The notes beneath the pieces are model-generated. The model ran no database searches. It saw only the letters and a list, made by a program, of their open reading frames with translations, and was not told the DNA's origin. A stretch of DNA of 18,533 nucleotides from a virus (lineage: Duplodnaviria > Heunggongvirae > Uroviricota > Caudoviricetes): the IMG/VR virus record IMGVR_UViG_2684622582_000009, one strand, 5' to 3'. The position numbers were made by a program, and so were the translations under genes. Of this stretch, positions 1,522 through 17,261 are shown in pieces. Positions within the stretch are counted from its first letter, which is position 1, and every line of letters starts with the position of its first letter.

Positions 1522-1809
1522 TTACTGTCTCTGGCAATCTTTATCGCGATAACGCCTGAAGTACCCTCTCGCTTCCTCATCCATACCAAGAGCCGAATGA
1601 GTCCGCTTAACTGCCTGTCTTAAATCTCCGAATCTGTCTGTAGTTGCTGGTGGGCGTGCCGCCTTACGGATACATTCAGAGCGTCTGTTTGCTGCATGTT
1701 CACGTTCTTTATCGCCATCTGCCAGCATCATGACTTCTGCCCATCGTGCGGCAGCTCTCCGGTATAGCCCTTTTGACTCCAGCTCTTCAGCTTTCCTGTC
1801 CCTTATCAT
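1522..1809 (-). CDS. PerC-family transcriptional regulator-like protein (95 aa)
   Basis: ORF with a GAGAGG Shine-Dalgarno about 5 nt upstream of the ATG at 1809. The N-terminal segment AEELESKGLYRRAAARWAEVM resembles the conserved A-x-x-LE-x-x-G-[LY]-[WY]-RRAA-x-RW signature I recall for PerC/Pch proteins, which are common on E. coli P4-like islands. Confidence 0.55.
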   Translation of the reverse strand: MIRDRKAEELESKGLYRRAAARWAEVMMLADGDKEREHAANRRSECIRKAARPPATTDRFGDLRQAVKRTHSALGMDEEARGYFRRYRDKDCQRQ

Positions 1810-1838
1810 TTCTGCCTCTCAGATTATATAGATAAGCA

Positions 1839-1966
1839 AAAAGGTGTTGGTTCAGTTGGTTCAGTTGGTTCAATTTGTAAAGAGCGTTGTTTTTATTGTG
1901 TTTTTTCTAAAATATTGAACCAACATCAACTCATTTTGAACCAACAAAAAGTGTCCGTGAACTAAC
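1839..1966. repeat. Iteron array A: three tandem GTTGGTTCA (1846..1872), then inverted copies TGAACCAAC at 1916..1924 and 1937..1945, and a degenerate TGAACTAAC at 1958..1966
   Basis: Read directly. Positions 1839..1884 are the exact reverse complement of 9395..9440. Interpretation as an alpha-binding ori/crr-like site is by analogy with P4 type I iterons. Confidence 0.7.
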
Positions 1967-2296
1967 ACTCTGTCAAATAGTCACTACATATATGAACGGT
2001 GAAGACTAAATTCGCCAGCAAATAGCTTATATAGCACCGCTTTATGCCGCAGTTATGCTGGAACAGTAATCATTTCACAGAACCGCCTAACTACTATATG
2101 GCACCTGCTAAAAAGCACATCAGCCTAGTCAGTTGATCGGTGCATGGATATCCTAACAATTCAACTATATAACGTGATCTCCCATGTCGATCTACTGTCA
2201 TGCAATGATTAACAAACACATAGACACATCTGCTTGGCGCATTGATTAATCACTGATCATCCATCAGGATATGCGAACCACCGTCACCAGGTTAGG

Positions 2297-3382
2297 ATGA
2301 TTCTCAAAAGCCACCTGTATTCAATGCCTTTGATGGGTTTCATCCATAGTTATTTTCTCGTGACTGACATGGAGATTTTGATTTCAAGGTGTGCAAAAAC
2401 TATCGCAGAGTACAATGGAGCTCAAATGACTGTGGCACCAAAAGATCAAAGTTTGAAATCTGTAAGGGTGGGCTTTTACACAAGCTCTGAGAATATTCGC
2501 ACTAGTAACAAGGGGTTAACCGCAGAGGCCTTTAAAAATCTGTATGATCGGTGTTCTAAAGACTTCAAGATGACCCACTATGCAGACTTTGGTGAAAGAG
2601 AACTTAAAATTCATTTTCTAGACATCTCACCCGAGGATGGCTCCTACTTCGGATTCATGTCTCGAAGAAGAAAAAGCGCAACACTGGCATATATTACAGA
2701 TAAAGAGTGGGTGGAAGAGAAAATCCCTCTAGCCGGGGCAAAGACTCTTTCAGAACGTACATACTTTATTTATTATCCTCAGACAGACATTCTAGTATTG
2801 TCTTTAAATCATTTAGGTCCACGCCATAGTGACTTAGCCTTCCTTCTTTTCAACTCCAGTGATCGCGGAGTCCCTGTTTCTTTTGAAGCCATTTGGAAAG
2901 AAGAAAGCATCAAAGAACTACTCGAAACTGGATCCAATCTAAGAAGCTGCGAGATTTCTGTGGCCATCCCAAGAAACTTCAATGCCGCACAGTATCAACT
3001 CGATGGAATGTTCGCGAATCAGATGATTGAGATGATCAGAGGCACCAGTTCAAGCCACCTGACTATTTCGTTACGCGGACATTCTCCATTAAAAAGAAAA
3101 GCAAAGGGATGGCTTGAGGATGACGTTAAAAAAAGCCTTAAGGAGATGCTAGAAAAGTTCCCTGGTGGTGATGGTCGTTTAACTTTTGAGAAAGCAAATG
3201 TTGTTGCTCAGGGCGATAAAAAGAAGAAAAGTCTTGTAGACGAAGTTCTTACGGTAAAGAAGATGGTGCCTATCCAAGCAGATGGGTATCCGACCGATAC
3301 TGACGTTAAAAATGCTATGCTACAAGCAAAGAATGACAACCTTAGGTATCTAACCCAGTACTATTTGGTTAGTCAAACGTAA
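2297..3382 (+). CDS. Hypothetical protein (361 aa as drawn), first gene of an AT-rich two-gene operon; candidate defence/abortive-infection component
   Basis: Long uninterrupted ORF in visibly AT-rich DNA. Possible starts are ATG 2297 (AGGT about 5 nt upstream) or ATG 2426 (GGAG 5 nt upstream), so the true N-terminus is uncertain. The stop lies 12 nt before the next gene's start. I recognise no family motif by eye. Confidence 0.6.
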   Translation: MILKSHLYSMPLMGFIHSYFLVTDMEILISRCAKTIAEYNGAQMTVAPKDQSLKSVRVGFYTSSENIRTSNKGLTAEAFKNLYDRCSKDFKMTHYADFGERELKIHFLDISPEDGSYFGFMSRRRKSATLAYITDKEWVEEKIPLAGAKTLSERTYFIYYPQTDILVLSLNHLGPRHSDLAFLLFNSSDRGVPVSFEAIWKEESIKELLETGSNLRSCEISVAIPRNFNAAQYQLDGMFANQMIEMIRGTSSSHLTISLRGHSPLKRKAKGWLEDDVKKSLKEMLEKFPGGDGRLTFEKANVVAQGDKKKKSLVDEVLTVKKMVPIQADGYPTDTDVKNAMLQAKNDNLRYLTQYYLVSQT

Positions 3383-3394
3383 CAGGAATACATT

Positions 3395-3832
3395 ATGAGT
3401 TCTCGGAAATTGTTTGCTGCCAAGTCATTGTTTGCTCTAGCTATGGCTATTGCTGGTGCCCATTTTTTACACGACCTAGATCACAATGCTGTCATTTCGG
3501 CTGCTGGTGCTCTTTCAACTATTTCTGGAGTTCTCTTTGGTTTTGTTTTGGCATCAGTCACCATGCTAAGTAGCTTTGATAGTTCAAAGGGAATTGTAGG
3601 CGCTCTAAAAAGTAACGGAGTACTAAAAGGCATTATTGAGGGGCTTTTTGATACAGGAACTACGCTGATCACAGCCTGCCTATTAGCAATGATCTCGATG
3701 TTTGCCCCTGTTGTCAGCAATCTGCCTCTGGATTATTATGCCCTGCTACTCGCAGGGGCATATTTGATTATATCAATGATAACTTTTTTCTTTAACTGGA
3801 AATCTTTATCTAAAATAATAAGTTACATATGA
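3395..3832 (+). CDS. Small integral membrane protein (145 aa, about four predicted TM helices); candidate membrane effector
   Basis: AGGAA Shine-Dalgarno 7 nt upstream of the ATG. Four hydrophobic segments of about 20 to 25 residues (LFAAKSLFALAMAIAGAHFL; AVISAAGALSTISGVLFGFVLASVTMLSSF; TTLITACLLAMISMFAPVV; YYALLLAGAYLIISMITFFFNW). Starts 12 nt after the 361-aa ORF. Confidence 0.7.
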   Translation: MSSRKLFAAKSLFALAMAIAGAHFLHDLDHNAVISAAGALSTISGVLFGFVLASVTMLSSFDSSKGIVGALKSNGVLKGIIEGLFDTGTTLITACLLAMISMFAPVVSNLPLDYYALLLAGAYLIISMITFFFNWKSLSKIISYI

Positions 3833-4170
3833 TAAATATTTCAAAATGAGTCCCCCTGCTACGGATAGTCCTTGGCTTAAAAAATACCGTCACCGCTGAA
3901 TACCCACACAGTGCCCCCACCCATTTAGTTGGCATAATGTATTCAACTGATTGAGGAATGGCTCCTCTTTTACTACCAAACGGCCATCGCTGGCGCATTC
4001 ATCCGCTGGTAGTGGAACTTTTTAGCCATCAGCGCCTCCCTAAATCAATTCCTTACATCGCTCAAATTCAACAACCATTGTTGTAATCTTGCTGCTATCA
4101 AGTAACGCCTTTGTATTACGCCGACTTTATCTTGCCAGCAACATACGCCATCCGATAATTTCGATGTTAC

Positions 4171-4554
4171 GCGCGCGTACTTGTCGCAAAATATCAGACA
4201 AAAGCCAGATTCAGAACGTCGTGATAACCACCAGCACAACATGAGAGGTCATGTAACGCGATTTATCACACCAGATACATGTGATTGGTGTACCCGCATA
4301 AAACATCGTCATAGCGCGTCCTGTGCGCATATACGCCGATAATCAACACATCACCACCACTCTGACTTATGTAGAGAACAGTTTTATGGTACTCCCCTCC
4401 ATCGTGCGCGTACTGGTCGGACGTAGTTGCAAAATTTTTTGCAACTGATACCCCTCGCGCGCGTACTTGTCTCGAAATTGGTGTTTTGCTGTGGCAGTGA
4501 TATCAGAAAAATCTTCCTGTTTCACATAAAGCGGATATGCGCGTACTGTAACGG
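4171..4554. repeat. Four same-orientation copies of a GCGCGTACT(T/G)GT-like motif (about 4171..4185, 4404..4418, 4456..4472, 4537..4550) plus a perfect palindrome GTTGCAAAATTTTTTGCAAC (4426..4445)
   Basis: Read directly in the intergenic block between the membrane-protein gene and the signal-peptide gene. Function unknown; could be operator sites, arm-type sites or a packaging-related element. Confidence 0.5.
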
Positions 4555-4664
4555 CCCCATCAACTGGGAGCGGATTTGAAATCCCGACCCAAGCTATGTA
4601 CCAAATGCCATGTCTTGGATATATGATGATTGCCATTCTAAACAACGCTAAAGGGAGGGTTGGT

Positions 4665-5063
4665 GTGAATCAATTGAAGCGATTGGTTGTCTCCGGTTTA
4701 TTATTTGCTTCTTTTGGAGCGAACGCTGAATGCTGGATTATTGGTGATCTGAAAGGACAAGAAGCCTCAAGTTTAGATGGGTATAACTATAAGTTATCAT
4801 CTATACCAGATACATTTCATTTGGTAATAAGTAAAGAGAAGGCGGATCTTATCTTGGCAAAAGATGGTATAGGTGGAGGTATTGATTATTACCCGCTATC
4901 TCCGAATGCCATGATGGGAAGAAGCTATCGAGATGGTCAACTGACGCTTGTCACATGGGCAATCTCAAATGACGGAAAAGTGATCCATACACGAACAATT
5001 AGTCGATCTGATATAGGCTCATTTACAGGCTCATTTGTCGGCAATGTTAAAGGCAAGTGTTAA
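4665..5063 (+). CDS. Small secreted/periplasmic protein (132 aa from GTG 4665) with a Sec-type signal peptide
   Basis: A strong Shine-Dalgarno AAGGGAGGG (4652..4659) sits 5 nt before the in-frame GTG at 4665, whereas the upstream ATG at 4596 has none. The N-terminus NQLKR-LVVSGLLFASFG-ANA|E has the n/h/c regions and AXA site of a signal peptide. The mature part has a Cys near each end. Confidence 0.55.
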   Translation: MNQLKRLVVSGLLFASFGANAECWIIGDLKGQEASSLDGYNYKLSSIPDTFHLVISKEKADLILAKDGIGGGIDYYPLSPNAMMGRSYRDGQLTLVTWAISNDGKVIHTRTISRSDIGSFTGSFVGNVKGKC

Positions 5064-5124: not shown

Positions 5125-7230
5125 TTATTGAGCTTCCTTTTGCGATGCTTGTGCTGCTGTGGTCAGTGATTGTGTGACCGTACTGATCGCTCTGTCATAT
5201 GCTGTGCTACCTTTTGGCGTATTTGCCAGACGTAACAAGGCATTTCGTATAACAGGGCTTTCGTATGCCTTCGCTGCTCCGCCTACGGAACCAGCAGCAG
5301 GAACAACAAACGCAGCCGTTTTTAGCATCCCCGCTAATACTGCTGCGTTTATGATGCCACCACCAACTAACAATCCATAAAGCTGCTGACCATTTAAGTT
5401 TTGAACGTTCGCTTTTGCCGCGTGTCTTGTATCGTTGAGGTATTTAATAACGCCGTCCAGTTCCTTTCCATGTATGCCTTTAAAGAAAGTTGCTGATTGC
5501 TTCCTGTTCCGGTGTAACGCATTAATAAACTTCTCAACACTGATATTTCCAGACGGATCAGTCGCCTTATCTACAGCATTCTGAACTATGGCTGCTCGTG
5601 CGTTTTGCCTACCATTGTCATCCAGAAGCCTGTAAAGCTGAGAACGTTCTGATGGGCTTTGGCTAAAAACAAGTTTTGTTACATCCTCAGGCGTGGCCTT
5701 GCCGCTGGCTATTGCCTTTTGAACGCGCGTTCTTCCCATCATGTCATTGAATTTAGACCATGAGCGATCAACCCTTGCCATATTAATAGCTTCGTCTGCT
5801 CCAAGATTTTTGGCTACGGCTTTTTTCATATCCGCCGTATATGCCTTGTAGATAATATCGCTGGCTTTCTGGAGCGTATCTTTATCAACAGTGTCAGATG
5901 ACGCCATAAATCGCTTTCGAAGATCGGTTCTGTTTTCCCTCGCCAGACGCAGGTCATTTGGTCCGCTGGTGATATCGTCTTTAAATTGCTGCAAGACTTT
6001 TACCGCGGCTCTATCCTGAGATTTGCCCGGGCGGCTTAACACGGCAATCTGATTGTCGATAGCTTTTACCGTGTTTGAGAGATCGACAGGGGTATCCCCC
6101 ATAGCGTCAATTATGCGGTTATATCGCTTTCCTGCTGCCTCAATGAATTTTTGTTGCCCTTTAGTCGCAGATTCATAAAGCTGTTTATCAGAAATGCCAC
6201 CCAGACCATCGCTAAATGTTCTGACTAAATTTTCTCGTGCTTGTTGTTGATTCAGCCGATTCTTACCGGTTCCAAAAAAAGGAACTCTTTCGCCTAATGT
6301 CTGAGCCTGACTCTGCATAAAGGTTTTATCTTTCAGCATGTCACTGGTCATTAACGGCAGATTTCTTTCCGATGCAAAGTCGACAGCAGCCTTTGCTTCA
6401 GGCGATATATCACCACGAACAGCCCTCGAAACCGCACTCGCTGTATTTTCCAGCCCCTTACCAATACCACCAATGCCAGCAGAAATTACCGTTTGTAACG
6501 GATCAATATCTTCTCCACCAGCGAGGCTGGTGGCTCCCTGTAGTGCTAAATCTGTAGCTGCTGATTTCCCTATGGCCCCCAGCACCGTTCCGGCCCTGCC
6601 CGCTGGTGTAAACGCCAGCGCATTAGCCAGAAACGATGCCACGTCTTGCGGCGATAAACCCGGCTTGTTCAGAGCATAATCACCGGATGGCAGGGAAACG
6701 ATAGTGTTACCCTTCTCATCCTGCCTTAATTTCGCTCCCATGCTCTGAAGAATCTTTTCCTGAGATGCGTCAGAGCCGAAAAGTTGAGACCATCGAGCTT
6801 TTAGAGCATCCATGCTGAGTGAGGTTAACTCTGGGGCAAGGTCGACATTTTGCAGTCTCTCCATCTCTGGAGTCATTCGGCTTTCGCCTGTTATAGCATC
6901 GCGCATCGCAGCCCCAAGACTGGCTCCCTGTTCTGCTGAACGCTCAAGCCCCTCTCTTTGCTGAGTAGCTAACTTTGCATACCCTGACGCAAGAGAATTA
7001 TCAGATGATGTATGTTGAATATTTTGAGTTGCTGATTGGGATCGGTCTATTTCATTCGTTGATGGTAGTGGATAGGCAGCATAAAAAGCCTGCTTAGCCT
7101 GCTCTACACTTTCTCCGGCTTGCGGGGCAACGACTTCATTGAAGTATTGCTCCTGAGCCTGCGCTTTTTGTTCTGGTGCTAACGCCTGATACTGTGGAGA
7201 GGCGATAACATCTTTCCATGCTTTAGCCAT
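5125..7230 (-). CDS. Large hypothetical protein (701 aa), A/Q-rich with a C-terminal glycine-zipper hydrophobic hairpin
   Basis: ORF with a GGGGTGA Shine-Dalgarno. Its ATG overlaps the upstream gene's stop (TAATG at 7228..7232), indicating translational coupling. The C-terminal segment LYGLLVGGGIINAAVLAGMLKTAAFVVPAAGSVGGAAKAY is about 40 hydrophobic, Gly-rich residues. No Walker A or other catalytic motif is recognisable. Confidence 0.75.
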   Translation of the reverse strand: MAKAWKDVIASPQYQALAPEQKAQAQEQYFNEVVAPQAGESVEQAKQAFYAAYPLPSTNEIDRSQSATQNIQHTSSDNSLASGYAKLATQQREGLERSAEQGASLGAAMRDAITGESRMTPEMERLQNVDLAPELTSLSMDALKARWSQLFGSDASQEKILQSMGAKLRQDEKGNTIVSLPSGDYALNKPGLSPQDVASFLANALAFTPAGRAGTVLGAIGKSAATDLALQGATSLAGGEDIDPLQTVISAGIGGIGKGLENTASAVSRAVRGDISPEAKAAVDFASERNLPLMTSDMLKDKTFMQSQAQTLGERVPFFGTGKNRLNQQQARENLVRTFSDGLGGISDKQLYESATKGQQKFIEAAGKRYNRIIDAMGDTPVDLSNTVKAIDNQIAVLSRPGKSQDRAAVKVLQQFKDDITSGPNDLRLARENRTDLRKRFMASSDTVDKDTLQKASDIIYKAYTADMKKAVAKNLGADEAINMARVDRSWSKFNDMMGRTRVQKAIASGKATPEDVTKLVFSQSPSERSQLYRLLDDNGRQNARAAIVQNAVDKATDPSGNISVEKFINALHRNRKQSATFFKGIHGKELDGVIKYLNDTRHAAKANVQNLNGQQLYGLLVGGGIINAAVLAGMLKTAAFVVPAAGSVGGAAKAYESPVIRNALLRLANTPKGSTAYDRAISTVTQSLTTAAQASQKEAQ

Positions 7231-8696
7231 TAATCACCCCATAGTGAAGAAAAGTTACTGCTGGCTGCTGGCTGTGATACCTGCTCAGATTGCGGCAATG
7301 TCTGCGACGAAGAAGCAGTTCCTCTGTCAACTGCTGAAATAACCCGCAAAGCATCATAAGTTCGACCAGAAGCAGCTTTCAGCGAATTGAACTGGTTTTC
7401 CATCTTCCGGCGCTTGGTATCAATGGTTTTTGTGGAGTCGCCAGGCTGAGGGAAATACATTTGATAATATTTTGACATTTCAGCAGGTGCGATAGCTGCC
7501 CCTGTTTCCTGACGGAGTATTGCCATTATTGCGTCATTAGCATTAACAACGTATTGCTGCTCTGCTGGGCTGAGCGTTAAGTTAGCCAGCGTCCCATTAC
7601 CCAAAGCATTATTAATGATCGCCACTCGCTGTGGGCTAAGCTGGTCTTTCAGTGTATCTATTGAATCAAGAGCATCCCTAACCCTGTATGCAAATCCAGC
7701 AGCTTTTTTAGCCCCTTCTGGCGACTTTTCCATGATCTTTTGGGCTGTTGGCAAAGCTATTGGACGAAACCCATCTCCAGATATTGGCTGGTTTAGTTTT
7801 CCCTGCTCTTCACTTCCGTCTGTGTAGTATTTTGTGACAGTGCCATCATCGTTTTCTCTAACACTCATTAATTTTTTGGCGTTTGTATTAATTCCAGCCG
7901 CTGCCGCAAATGCCGCCGCCCCCTCTGGATCCGCCTTTAACATTTGCGCGTACTGATTGTAATTCTGCATTGCGGCTGTTGGTGCATATGCTGACGTTAA
8001 CGCATTTGCTCGGCTAATATCCTGCCCTCTCGCCTGAAGTGCTTCTCCGGCCTGATTGCTGCGGATTGTCTCTGCCAACTTGCCACGCTCAATATCCCGA
8101 CCTTCCATTTGATCTTTGATATCGAAATACTTCTCATGACCGAGAGAAAACAGCGCCAGATTACCTGCGAAATGCTGGAAGCCCTGCGGGTCATTAACCT
8201 GCATTTCAGCAATAGTTTCTGGAGGGATACCTAAACGACGCATCTCCTGCTCATTATCCATCATGAACCTGCCAAATGCGCCCTGACCAAGCGATGAGGC
8301 TACCTGTGCTTTGAGCGCCAGATTGCCATAATCATCCCTTTGAGCATCATCGACATAACTCATCCCTTTACGGACTTCCTCAAACTCTTCTGGGAATGCT
8401 GTAATAAGATTACGCATCTGCTCCCTGTCACCGGACGCATAAGCATCTGCATAACCTTTCTGGAATGCTGCTTTACGCTCCTGCTGTTGCTGCTGCTTAT
8501 AAATATCAGCAACTCCAGCCAGACCACGAAGACCTGTCAGAGCAACGTTATTTGCACCTGAGCGAGCCAGTTCATTGTTTTCGCGGATCAGACCAAGCGT
8601 TGCGTTAATGTCGCTTGCTTTTGGCGCATTCTCATTTTGCGTACCGATGCCAGCCAGAAAACCACCAGAATTAATACCCTGTTGCCACGTAGCCAT
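7230..8696 (-). CDS. Large hypothetical protein (488 aa from ATG 8696; 492 aa if GTG 8708 is used), A/Q-rich, low complexity
   Basis: Long ORF translationally coupled to the 701-aa gene. The track start at 8708 is a GTG overlapping the upstream small gene; the ATG at 8696 (MATWQQG...) lies 4 nt after that gene's stop. Contains a QQQQQ run and many Ala/Gln. Confidence 0.75.
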   Translation of the reverse strand: MATWQQGINSGGFLAGIGTQNENAPKASDINATLGLIRENNELARSGANNVALTGLRGLAGVADIYKQQQQQERKAAFQKGYADAYASGDREQMRNLITAFPEEFEEVRKGMSYVDDAQRDDYGNLALKAQVASSLGQGAFGRFMMDNEQEMRRLGIPPETIAEMQVNDPQGFQHFAGNLALFSLGHEKYFDIKDQMEGRDIERGKLAETIRSNQAGEALQARGQDISRANALTSAYAPTAAMQNYNQYAQMLKADPEGAAAFAAAAGINTNAKKLMSVRENDDGTVTKYYTDGSEEQGKLNQPISGDGFRPIALPTAQKIMEKSPEGAKKAAGFAYRVRDALDSIDTLKDQLSPQRVAIINNALGNGTLANLTLSPAEQQYVVNANDAIMAILRQETGAAIAPAEMSKYYQMYFPQPGDSTKTIDTKRRKMENQFNSLKAASGRTYDALRVISAVDRGTASSSQTLPQSEQVSQPAASSNFSSLWGD

Positions 8697-8700
8697 AAAT

Positions 8701-8874
8701 TTACCCACGTCCAGTTAAAGTGTAAGCCAGCGCCTTATCCATTAATCCCCGAGCAATTTCGTGGATCGTTGGCGCAACTCCTACCTCTGATTTTTTACGC
8801 TGCTCCTCCTGAATTTTCTTTATCGCTTCCATTTGCTTCTCACTTATCAATACTGGCTTTACTGAAATAGCCAT
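8701..8874 (-). CDS. Small protein (57 aa), possible ribbon-helix-helix DNA-binding protein; first gene of the LexA-box operon
   Basis: Not in the ORF track because it is under 60 aa. The ATG at 8874 follows a strong Shine-Dalgarno AAGGGGG. Translation: MAISVKPVLISEKQMEAIKKIQEEQRKKSEVGVAPTIHEIARGLMDKALAYTLTGRG. A beta-strand-like VKPVLIS followed by two helical segments is compatible with an RHH fold, judged by eye only. Confidence 0.5.
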   Translation of the reverse strand: MAISVKPVLISEKQMEAIKKIQEEQRKKSEVGVAPTIHEIARGLMDKALAYTLTGRG

Positions 8875-8889
8875 AACGCCCCCTTAGAA

Positions 8890-8913
8890 CTGTATAAAAC
8901 AACAGTTATTATA
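8890..8913 (-). promoter_or_regulatory. Candidate SOS promoter: LexA box CTGTATAAAACAACAG (8890..8905) directly downstream of a perfect TATAAT -10 (minus strand, 8908..8913)
   Basis: Read directly: CTG-N10-CAG with an AT-rich spacer, flanked as AACTGT...ACAGTT like the dinD box. It sits 16 to 31 nt upstream of the 57-aa gene's ATG, a position typical of LexA operators overlapping the -10/+1 region. The -35 element is weak. Confidence 0.6.
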
Positions 8914-9196
8914 GTTTCACAAATCGCAATATTCATCATCGTAATTGCAAAATATGAAACAAATAGCACAAAAAAATGCCACCGCTCAGTAGCTGGTGGC
9001 ATCGTTCTGTGTGTCAGGTTTTGACAGGTTTTTTATGGACTCTAAAAACTATATTTATGGTGTCGCATTACTCTTCACGGCAGGCGCTTTTCAGTTCTGC
9101 CCTTGCTTCTGGCTCCATTGGTAATTTGATTCGCGATCAGCTATGCGGATGGTTTGCTGAACAGGCATAACAACTTCTCAGAGGCTGTTTTTTGAA

Positions 9197-9272
9197 CTAC
9201 GAAAATTTCGTAGTGCTCACTTTCAAAAACGTCACGCCCTTGTACACAGGATTTTACGAAAGTCTCGTAAAA
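9197..9272. promoter_or_regulatory. Two related palindromes, CTACGAAAATTTCGTAG (9197..9213) and TTTTACGAAAGTCTCGTAAAA (9252..9272); operator-like sites
   Basis: Read directly; both share a TACGAAA half-site and lie about 55 bp apart between the iteron array and the LexA-box promoter. They are AU-rich and lack a following T-tract, so they are unlikely to be terminators. Confidence 0.3.
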
Positions 9273-9322
9273 CACTCTCTGATGCCAGCCAGGTGTTGTG
9301 CGCATCAATTCAGTCACATTGT

Positions 9323-9440
9323 GTTGGTTCAAAATACCGTGTTGTTGGTTCAGTGTTGGTTCAATAAAAAGAATAAAATCCTTATAAAACAATACTCTTT
9401 ACAAATTGAACCAACTGAACCAACTGAACCAACACCTTTT
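9323..9440. repeat. Iteron array B: GTTGGTTCA at 9323..9331, 9344..9352 and 9355..9363, then three tandem TGAACCAAC (9407..9433); mirror image of array A
   Basis: Read directly. Positions 9395..9440 are the exact reverse complement of 1839..1884. The array lies immediately downstream of the primase-helicase gene, consistent with an origin-type alpha-binding site (inference). Confidence 0.7.
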
Positions 9441-9458
9441 CTACGCACATGAAGAAGT

Positions 9459-13706: not shown

Positions 13707-14555
13707 GTGCCACCTCCATGCGGATACGACCAGCAAAAAAGCAGACGTGATCGCGCACCAGAGAAAGGCGAGCATCGCGTTCAGACTCGGCAGCAATATG
13801 ATGAATTTTGGCGGTAATTGTCGGGCAATCGCGGCGAACTGCGGCGATAATCCAGATAAATTGCGGTTTTTGGGTAGGGGTAGTAGCCAGCATGTGGCAG
13901 CCTCCTTCAGATAGCAGGTTACGCTACCACCGGAAACGCCAATTTCGCTGGTGGTAGCCCAGACAGGGTTGGCGTAACCGGCTCTGAAGGATACCGGCGC
14001 TTCCGAAGAAGCCCCCGCCTGAGCCACCATTGATTGACAAGGGCGCTGGATTATACACCAACGCCCAAAAAATGGGTGAGTCAGACCTACGACATAAAAA
14101 AAGACGCTCGGCGCGTCATATGTCGCCTTCAGAATTTTCAGGACGCCAATCCCGGCACCCGTTTTATGAGGTGCCTTATAACCATAAACCGTGTTGCCGC
14201 ATAACGGCAAGCTCTTTTTTATGGACTCCGAAAACTCACTATTGGAAGCACCAGATGCACAATACATCGCGCTTATTTCGTTAACGTCACGCGCGTGGAC
14301 GAAGGTTTTTGTGGAGTCACTACACGAGCAGAACAGGTCATCTACGACCAGAAATTCTCTGGCGCAGCCGCTGACCTTCTCAACGCTAACATCATCGACC
14401 GTAATTTCTGACATAGTTAAGGCATCCGCTCCTACCACCAGCAAATGATAAACTTTGCTTGTATCTGCTGTATTAATGCCTGACTTTGCCGCCATATTGC
14501 TGTATTTTGGCGACATGCCAGCCAGTGAAAATATCTTCTTCTGGACGGGTATCAT
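13488..14555 (-). CDS. 355-aa ORF of uncertain reality (possibly a genuine N-terminal gene plus read-through, or a region with non-coding function)
   Basis: The start at 14555 has a GGAGG Shine-Dalgarno and ATGA coupling to the upstream 59-aa gene, so translation probably initiates here. The central 150 or so residues are rich in W, C and P and look like a non-coding frame, and several opposite-strand ORFs overlap. Confidence 0.3.
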
Positions 14556-16310: not shown

Positions 16311-17261
16311 TTAACTATCCACTTTGCCATTTGCCGCAGATCGTAGATGTTTAAGAATTACATCTTCATTAGTTATCATAAGTGGTGGAACTTCGTCTAA
16401 ATGACGAACAAGACAGTCACGCCACTTCTCAGGGCTTATTTCTTTCCTTTCTCCCCTGCATTCATTTGGATACTTACTAAGTATATAAATTGCAGATTTT
16501 AATAGTTTCTCCCTATTGACTGCGTACCGTTCGGCACGTTTATTAACTTTTAGCGTATTTATATCATTGGATAACTTGTTTGCGGATGGTTTGTGCATGG
16601 GTCTGTCATAAATATATTTTCCTCCATTTATAAGAAGATTGTATTCATAGTCAGTTATATACATTTTGTTTCGGCTTATTTCATACCAGCCGTCAATATA
16701 AAAAGCTCCGATTTCATAATTATTCGATTTGCTAAACTCGTCACATCTCGGAGGCATCAGTTCGCATACAGAGATCTCCCAATCATCCCATTCTGATAGC
16801 TCCCGCTCATCGTTATCTATGAACGCAGGCGGAATTGCTAATAGACCGCTCCATCTTTCGATATCTCTTTCATCCTTCCCAACATTGTATCGCTCTATAA
16901 CTGAGAAATGTTCTGATTTGTATGAAAACCTCATAAAATACATATAGTTATCGCTATTTTTATAATCAAGTGATGATAAGCCATATGATTCGAGATTATC
17001 TGCCTTATTGCTCAGATCAAGGAGATAATTCTCATGTGCTGCTTTTGTATCTATATGAAAAATACTATCTGTTTCAACTTTAAGTAATTCTGGCTCGGCA
17101 TCTTCATTTTTTGGGTAATGGTAAAACAATTCAATAGGTGGAATTTTTATACATATTTCTAAAACCCCAATTGCTGCATAGTGTATTAAATCGGATACTT
17201 CACATCCGGCCAGTTTGGCTGCTTTATCCAAAGAATAATATTTATGCGCAGGTAATTTCAT
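16311..17261 (-). CDS. Hypothetical protein (316 aa), AT-rich, with a possible N-terminal HTH; sits between int and alpA
   Basis: Its ATG at 17261 lies 18 nt after the integrase stop, with a GAGAGGAAAG Shine-Dalgarno that spans the int TGA. The N-terminus YSLDKAAKLAGCEVSDLIHYAAIG looks like a helix-turn-helix. The DNA is visibly more AT-rich than its neighbours (not computed). Confidence 0.65.
   Translation of the reverse strand: MKLPAHKYYSLDKAAKLAGCEVSDLIHYAAIGVLEICIKIPPIELFYHYPKNEDAEPELLKVETDSIFHIDTKAAHENYLLDLSNKADNLESYGLSSLDYKNSDNYMYFMRFSYKSEHFSVIERYNVGKDERDIERWSGLLAIPPAFIDNDERELSEWDDWEISVCELMPPRCDEFSKSNNYEIGAFYIDGWYEISRNKMYITDYEYNLLINGGKYIYDRPMHKPSANKLSNDINTLKVNKRAERYAVNREKLLKSAIYILSKYPNECRGERKEISPEKWRDCLVRHLDEVPPLMITNEDVILKHLRSAANGKVDS

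Follow-up and report, generated by a model that had tools for sequence, protein, structure and literature searches.

A putative RexAB-type phage-exclusion module carried as cargo by a phage-inducible chromosomal island of the EcCIMP1 family

The virus record IMGVR_UViG_2684622582_000009 of IMG/VR, an 18,533 nt stretch of DNA assigned to the Caudoviricetes and referred to here as the window, carries two adjacent, co-oriented plus-strand genes, designated A and B, that probably form a two-component phage-exclusion (abortive-infection) module of the RexAB type, borne as cargo by a phage-inducible chromosomal island (PICI) of the EcCIMP1 family. We put the probability of this reading at about 0.6, and infer the defensive role of the pair from homology and location. 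The original prediction, made from the nucleotide sequence alone, had proposed a candidate abortive-infection module in which a soluble sensor is combined with a small membrane effector, and this layout is favored by the remote structural and profile similarity that the two products appear to have to RexA and RexB of phage lambda. RexAB is the oldest abortive-infection system known, and figured in Benzer's rII work. The window pair shares the architecture of that system and falls outside its sequence families as strictly defined, and is best described as a sequence family of its own within a known kind of system.

The mechanical open reading frames (ORFs) of the two genes span 2297–3382 and 3395–3832, and the first product was accordingly predicted to have 361 aa. 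This was an overestimate: the start of gene A is placed at the ATG at 2426 because all homologues of A are 309–323 aa in length and align from the corresponding methionine, the RefSeq product has the same shortened length, a GGAG ribosome-binding site occurs at 2417–2420 (5 nt 5' of the ATG), and an orthologue with 91% identity to A (locus L014) has an in-frame TAA four codons 5' of the conserved ATG. The 43 codons removed in this way are probably 5' untranslated or promoter sequence. The predicted gap of 12 nt between the genes is correct (the stop codon of gene A occupies 3380–3382), and the layout of this spacer points to translational coupling within an operon. That both ORFs are genes is clear from the dozens of homologues that each has, in which invariant residues are conserved. 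Terminator-like sites were found at chance level only, and a 12-nt inverted repeat around the module (1929–1940 and 3840–3851) was discarded as being within chance expectation and having its left arm in the conserved flank. Feature coordinates are collected in Table 1.

Table 1. Coordinates of the A–B module and of its surroundings in the window
Feature	Coordinates	Strand	Description
PerC-family regulator gene	1522–1809	-	Pfam PerC, E 2.6e-33; marks the left flank of the slot, outside the module
Variable cargo cassette	1950–4124		Approximate edges (left 1946–1968, right 3991–4125), from blastn against sister islands
N-terminal extension of the 361-aa mechanical ORF	2297–2425	+	43 codons; spurious, without counterpart in homologues
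Gene A	2426–3382	+	318 aa, soluble, RexA-like; divergent DUF6731 branch; PHROG 7651; RefSeq WP_001528727.1
A–B spacer	3383–3394	+	12 nt; AGGA at 3384–3387, 7 nt ahead of the gene B ATG
Gene B	3395–3832	+	145 aa, four transmembrane helices, RexB-like putative inner-membrane protein; PHROG 8552; WP_000098670.1

The AlphaFold2 model of protein A (predicted local distance difference test score, pLDDT, of 80) was compared with the PDB using Foldseek, and the best match was lambda RexA (8TWQ; E 7.7e-7, probability 1.0), with RdgC next. The model displays the split globular domain with an inserted dimerization domain that characterizes RexA and resembles RdgC, and A is, as modeled, a cytoplasmic protein with a predicted RexA/RdgC fold. 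Identity to RexA is about 15%, and hhalign comparisons of single sequences with RexA were not significant; significance was reached only after the families had been widened with distant relatives. Local alignments of the A/DUF6731 family (193 sequences) with the RexA family (33 sequences) then gave probabilities of 73–92% and E-values from 3e-5 to 6e-7, and global alignment gave 94.5%, with 1.5e-8 as the lowest E-value across runs. The alignment is colinear, pairing residues 13–313 of A with residues 1–270 of RexA, and the reversed control had a probability of 0.3%. Using a hidden Markov model (HMM) of the A family, 10 of 20 RexA-family proteins scored above the maximum of 2,000 shuffled sequences.

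No Pfam, NCBIfam or PADLOC model matches A or B directly. Sub-threshold Pfam matches to TubZ-like_C (E 0.026) and DUF2649 (E 0.08) were taken as chance, as was IF3 (E 0.34), the sole result of a sequence-profile search of the PDB. Both proteins belong to function-unassigned PHROGs (Table 1). Homologues at 41–49% identity to A match the Pfam domain DUF6731 (PF20505), which was detected in 15 of the 41 close and 91 of the 100 distant relatives tested, whereas A itself does not match this model at E ≤ 1, and its membership of the DUF6731 superfamily is therefore by transitive homology. A profile of close homologues (A1) recovers DUF6731 relatives with E-values down to 1e-27. Members of the core DUF6731 family are about 280–300 aa long and, like A, are encoded next to a small transmembrane (TM) partner, whereas A belongs to a divergent enterobacterial branch whose proteins have about 310–320 aa. 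An exhaustive profile search for the A family yielded no more than 253 clusters (50% identity). A scan of species-representative genomes found gene A in only three. The suggestion that A might be an undescribed family is thus partly borne out: DUF6731 and the two PHROGs already exist, but a search of the accessible literature found no mention of DUF6731 or of the accessions concerned, and the Rex models of PADLOC miss both proteins. A homologue of A is labeled a portal (connector) protein in phages vB_EcoS-733R5 and vB_EcoS-716R3 (ON470608.1 and ON470622.1; L066-type matches), which is almost certainly an annotation error.

For protein B, the predicted length of 145 aa and four TM segments both held, the latter by a Kyte-Doolittle scan that detected four hydrophobic segments and by the helices of the AlphaFold2 model, which lie at approximately residues 3–24, 30–63, 76–103 and 112–144. 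Charged residues are found near the N-terminus (R4, K5 and K10) and C-terminus (K136 and K140), and the first loop is acidic, a distribution that fits an N-in/C-in topology with a cytoplasmic loop between TM2 and TM3; this loop is highly conserved in the B family. Against a custom RexB-family HMM, for which the IMG/VR partners of RexA homologues were used, B scored 12.5 bits and the TM partners of core DUF6731 genes scored 13–22 bits (maximum 22.4), while the best of 1,407 shuffled or reversed controls reached 10.3 bits; six of seven B-type proteins, including that of the window, outscored all of the controls. Alignment of the widened B family with the RexB family by hhalign was colinear, with probabilities of 49–90% and E-values from 2e-4 to 2e-6, and in the best case (89.8%, E 1.8e-6) it brought together a conserved histidine before TM2, TM2 itself and the TM2–TM3 loop. 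The few residues common to B-type proteins and RexB lie in these parts, namely the histidine, the G-x-x-x-G/A-rich TM2 and the loop. On these sequence comparisons, B is predicted to be a four-TM membrane protein and a distant relative of RexB.

The similarity to lambda RexA/RexB (PF15969/PF15968; PDB 8TWQ) extends to gene organization. In both cases a soluble protein of about 280–320 aa is encoded first and is followed by a four-TM protein of about 145 aa; the products have 279 and 144 aa in lambda, where the genes are 15 nt apart, and 318 and 145 aa in the window, where the gap is 12 nt. Both pairs reside on temperate mobile elements, and both partners are remotely similar at the profile level. 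They differ in that A is some 40 aa longer than RexA and is diverged beyond the reach of the Pfam and PADLOC Rex models, and in that the lambda genes form a cI-rexA-rexB operon, whereas the window pair is carried as cargo by a PICI and has an upstream region of its own.

Two other Rex-like systems offer further comparisons. RexABpp (PP_5643/PP_5644), encoded by prophage P1 of Pseudomonas putida downstream of a cI-like repressor, as in lambda, requires both genes for defense; DNA binding has been shown, overexpression of its RexA leads to RexB-dependent membrane damage, and its RexB is a growth-suppressing effector (Sci Rep 2026, PMC12894663). Like A–B, it is of RexAB type by virtue of remote or structural similarity to RexA only, and has a four-TM partner, although RexBpp is longer than B (188 versus 145 aa). 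The PP_5643/PP_5644 sequences, recovered from IMG/VR by way of the primer sequences, have no Pfam domain and no detectable sequence similarity to A, B or DUF6731, so that RexApp was rejected as a DUF6731 member and RexABpp represents a separate sequence family. In the actinobacteriophages, gp30/gp31 of Sbash and gp44/gp43 of CarolAnn are prophage-expressed heterotypic defenses that consist of a soluble RexA-like protein and a four-TM protein with an essential central cytoplasmic loop, comparable to the conserved TM2–TM3 loop of B, but their hosts and genomic contexts are unlike those of the window pair. The second-best match of the B model in BFVD is a 165-aa Sbash protein that may be gp31, although the match is weak (E 0.05).

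Kiwa, another two-gene system, consists of a small multi-pass membrane protein, KwaA, encoded first, and a soluble, DNA-associated protein, KwaB (DUF4868), and models for it are included in PADLOC-DB. It was dropped as a candidate, as neither A nor B has a PADLOC or Pfam match and the fold matches in the PDB include no Kiwa chain.

Gene A is always directly followed by gene B, and the two have diverged in parallel. At about 80 of 85 related loci (designated by L numbers), an ORF for a multi-TM protein of 143–157 aa begins 2–28 nt after gene A, and a small TM partner also follows A at core DUF6731 loci. In a metagenomic contig (L136) the homologue of A looked like an orphan because the gene caller of the source had missed a B-type partner at 5963–6406. 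Pairwise distances of A and B are strongly correlated (Mantel r 0.93), a value that was reached in none of 2,000 permutations. Lambdoid prophages account for about 66 of the loci; in these the pair lies between the genes for antiterminator Q and lysis, on the opposite strand, and orf54/orf53 of phage cdtI are an A–B pair in this position. Other contexts are EcCIMP1-type PICIs, a site beside a related primase, and a position downstream of cI/XRE-like repressors; the last is the lambda-like arrangement of the core DUF6731 pairs L137–L140. In Vibrio phage 10N.286.54.F4_PE001 (L144), a 14.6-kb prophage of the non-tailed, PM2-like Vinavirales, the pair (1389–2896) directly follows the integrase, and its A and B products have HMM scores of 229 and 125 bits, respectively.

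The window itself is, from its sequence, an EcCIMP1-family PICI satellite. It is near-identical to a locus of Escherichia coli UPEC132 that sits between tRNA-Thr/proA and a Vat/MarR islet and that carries genes for an integrase, helix-turn-helix (HTH) regulators, AntA/B, ash, a TOPRIM-DUF927 primase, P22-type ejection proteins and perC; genes for capsid, tail or lysis functions are absent from the annotation of that locus. The integrase, an AlpA-type HTH regulator, the primase, integration at tRNA-Thr/proA, the lack of virion and lysis genes and the homology to an experimentally mobilized island are all as expected of a PICI. That island is EcCIMP1 of strain MP1, to which 7,981 of the 18,533 nt of the window align at 90–98% identity, and since the layout of the UPEC132 locus is that of EcCIMP1 and the alignment to EcCIMP1 is long, the description of the surrounding DNA as a satellite backbone is justified. 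EcCIMP1 is a PICI whose mobilization by the P22-like phage Kapi1 has been shown experimentally (PMC11773190), and it contributes to superinfection immunity; its authors detected no known defense system in this island family with PADLOC or DefenseFinder.

Within this backbone, A–B occupies a variable slot. Pairwise blastn of the window against sister islands L132, L133 and L134 and against EcCIMP1 (L143) showed that conservation of the flanks, including the perC gene that is also annotated in the sister islands, stops and restarts at the edges given in Table 1, with other genes in between: AbiD (PADLOC E 2.7e-57) together with a 147-aa gene, a CapP-like ImmA/IrrE peptidase (8e-25) accompanied by two small genes, or a gene for a 52-aa HTH protein. 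Among 5,426 complete E. coli genomes, the flanks were found in 553–613 and A–B in 41. Because conserved flanks bracket differing genes in related islands, the separate acquisition of A–B that had been proposed is directly supported, as is the idea of a satellite with defense genes in a variable region, and the slot between perC and the ejection-protein genes appears from its gene content to be a defense hotspot of EcCIMP1-type PICIs. Base composition, the original ground for proposing separate acquisition, agrees as far as it goes: GC content was computed as 40.8% for 2297–3832 (and the same for 1810–4000), compared with 47.1% elsewhere in the window, and the value for 2297–3832 falls at the 5th percentile of windows of equal length. 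The dip is real but modest, and is matched or exceeded by other segments, at 16311–17261 (35.8%), 8709–9458 (40.4%) and 4596–5063 (40.0%). In EcCIMP1 the slot holds the 52-aa HTH gene (alpA_1) instead of A–B, which rules out the pair as the source of superinfection immunity in that island.

Several results weigh against a RexAB-type exclusion module. The RexA and RexB models of Pfam and PADLOC, which recognize lambda RexA at 1e-97 and 9e-110, have no match to A or B at E ≤ 1, placing A outside the RexA family as strictly defined (PF15969 and PADLOC RexA). The narrow A1 profile alone was not significant against RexA in hhalign, and in the reverse test the RexA HMM did not score the A family cleanly above shuffled sequences (one control reached 15.0 bits). 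The B model, built from a narrower alignment (A5), has four long helices at moderate confidence (pLDDT 69), and its BFVD matches are weak (E ≥ 0.026), with lambda RexB outside the top 50. Of the searches proposed with the original prediction, PADLOC was negative, and Foldseek pointed to RexA for A and gave weak matches for B. In addition, the window pair has perC and the ejection-protein genes as its neighbors and not a cI-type repressor, a scan for sigma-70 promoters 5' of gene A found no match, and exclusion as the "true" role of Rex has been questioned for lambda itself (PMC11077077).

The same paper reports that lambda RexA biases the CI–Cro switch independently of RexB, and A could likewise be mainly a modulator of a lysis-lysogeny or induction switch, whether of the satellite, its helper or a host prophage, with B tuning its activity and exclusion as a by-product. 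The position of L137–L140 just downstream of cI/XRE-like genes, which recalls lambda and P. putida P1, would suit such a role; however, the window pair and the approximately 66 lambdoid pairs lie away from the immunity region, in cargo or moron positions, A–B is exchanged for AbiD or other cargo with the island backbone unaffected, and B is invariably kept and diverges in step with A, so that we regard a switch function as unlikely. It is improbable that A–B is a membrane-acting superinfection-exclusion or toxin-antitoxin-like module, without a sensing step, in which B blocks DNA entry or is a toxin restrained by A. The small, four-TM nature of B, the growth suppression by P. putida RexB, and the presence of P22-type ejection-protein genes in an island family whose type member contributes to superinfection immunity are in its favor, but that immunity is not attributable to a pair that EcCIMP1 lacks, the predicted fold of A is of a DNA-binding type and not that of an antitoxin, and in the Rex precedents A activates B instead of neutralizing it. 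There is also a slim chance that the resemblance to RexAB reflects convergence or a shared, ancient RdgC/CHL4-type fold with an unrelated function, such as control of DNA or recombination with a membrane anchor, given the low identity to RexA, the failure of standard RexA and RexB HMMs to detect the pair, and the occurrence of this fold in RdgC and kinetochore proteins with other roles.

If A–B is indeed a RexAB-type module, its mode of action may be sketched from lambda RexAB, Sbash gp30/31 and P. putida RexABpp. Protein A, probably a dimer with non-specific DNA binding, would sense a cue of infection, such as a phage protein or a replication or recombination intermediate, and would activate B through the conserved cytoplasmic TM2–TM3 loop. 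B would then oligomerize to form a channel or pore, leading to collapse of the membrane potential and of ATP levels, and the infected cell would stop growing before phage progeny were formed, which could protect both the clonal population and the resident satellite.

Taken together, DUF6731 proteins and their four-TM partners may represent a third, previously unrecognized lineage of Rex-type abortive-infection systems, a self-contained cassette distributed over PICIs, lambdoid phages, cI-adjacent prophage slots and Vinavirales, in which the residues shared with RexB would form the gating core of the Rex channel, and helper-type or competing phages may be the targets of the PICI-borne module. 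We advance this wider proposal tentatively, at slightly less than even odds. A third diverged family of the same two-part design would allow a comparative dissection of the sensing and effector mechanism of Rex, which is still unsolved, and the residues conserved across Rex-type families would be prime targets for mutagenesis. It also provides a testable function for one Pfam domain of unknown function (DUF6731) and two PHROG families, exposes a blind spot in defense annotation of the PADLOC style, and documents the putative defense hotspot between perC and the ejection-protein genes of EcCIMP1-type PICIs.

At the left edge of the cargo slot are three tandem copies of the 9-nt sequence GTTGGTTCA (1846–1878) and two inverted copies of TTGAACCAAC (1912–1953), and a related segment of about 110 nt occurs in inverted orientation 5' of the primase gene (9319–9440); these sequences may serve as iterons, as an origin or as binding sites for regulators. 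To the right of gene B, about 760 nt (3833–4595) have no annotated gene and include three copies of CGCGCGCGTACTTGTC (at 4170, 4403 and 4456). Since 4125–4590 is 96% conserved in EcCIMP1, this part is backbone and not cargo.

Two Rfam matches on the minus strand, a C4 antisense RNA (13947–14034, 79.9 bits) and an isrK Hfq-binding RNA (14097–14174, 67.8 bits), both lie inside the long "ash family" ORF region, and suggest that the window PICI carries an RNA immunity element of the P1/P4 type. The two large P22-type ejection/DNA-transfer protein genes (5125–8708, minus strand) belong to PHROG 770 and 917, and their alleles do not align with those of EcCIMP1 at the DNA level, which suggests that ejection genes are swapped to suit different helper phages. 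Next to the integrase, the DUF6387 gene (16311–17261, minus strand) has the lowest GC content of any segment of the window, and its third codon positions are 29% GC; it has no PADLOC match and is missing from EcCIMP1 at that position, so that, being AT-rich and without a counterpart there, it looks like a second cargo slot. The window opens with a DinD-like gene (1–837), followed by 838–1521, in a place where UPEC132 and MP1 have a pRiA4b ORF-3 family gene instead. The same DinD arrangement is found in strain PEC011 (L133), and positions 1–1521 mark a further mosaic boundary of the island.

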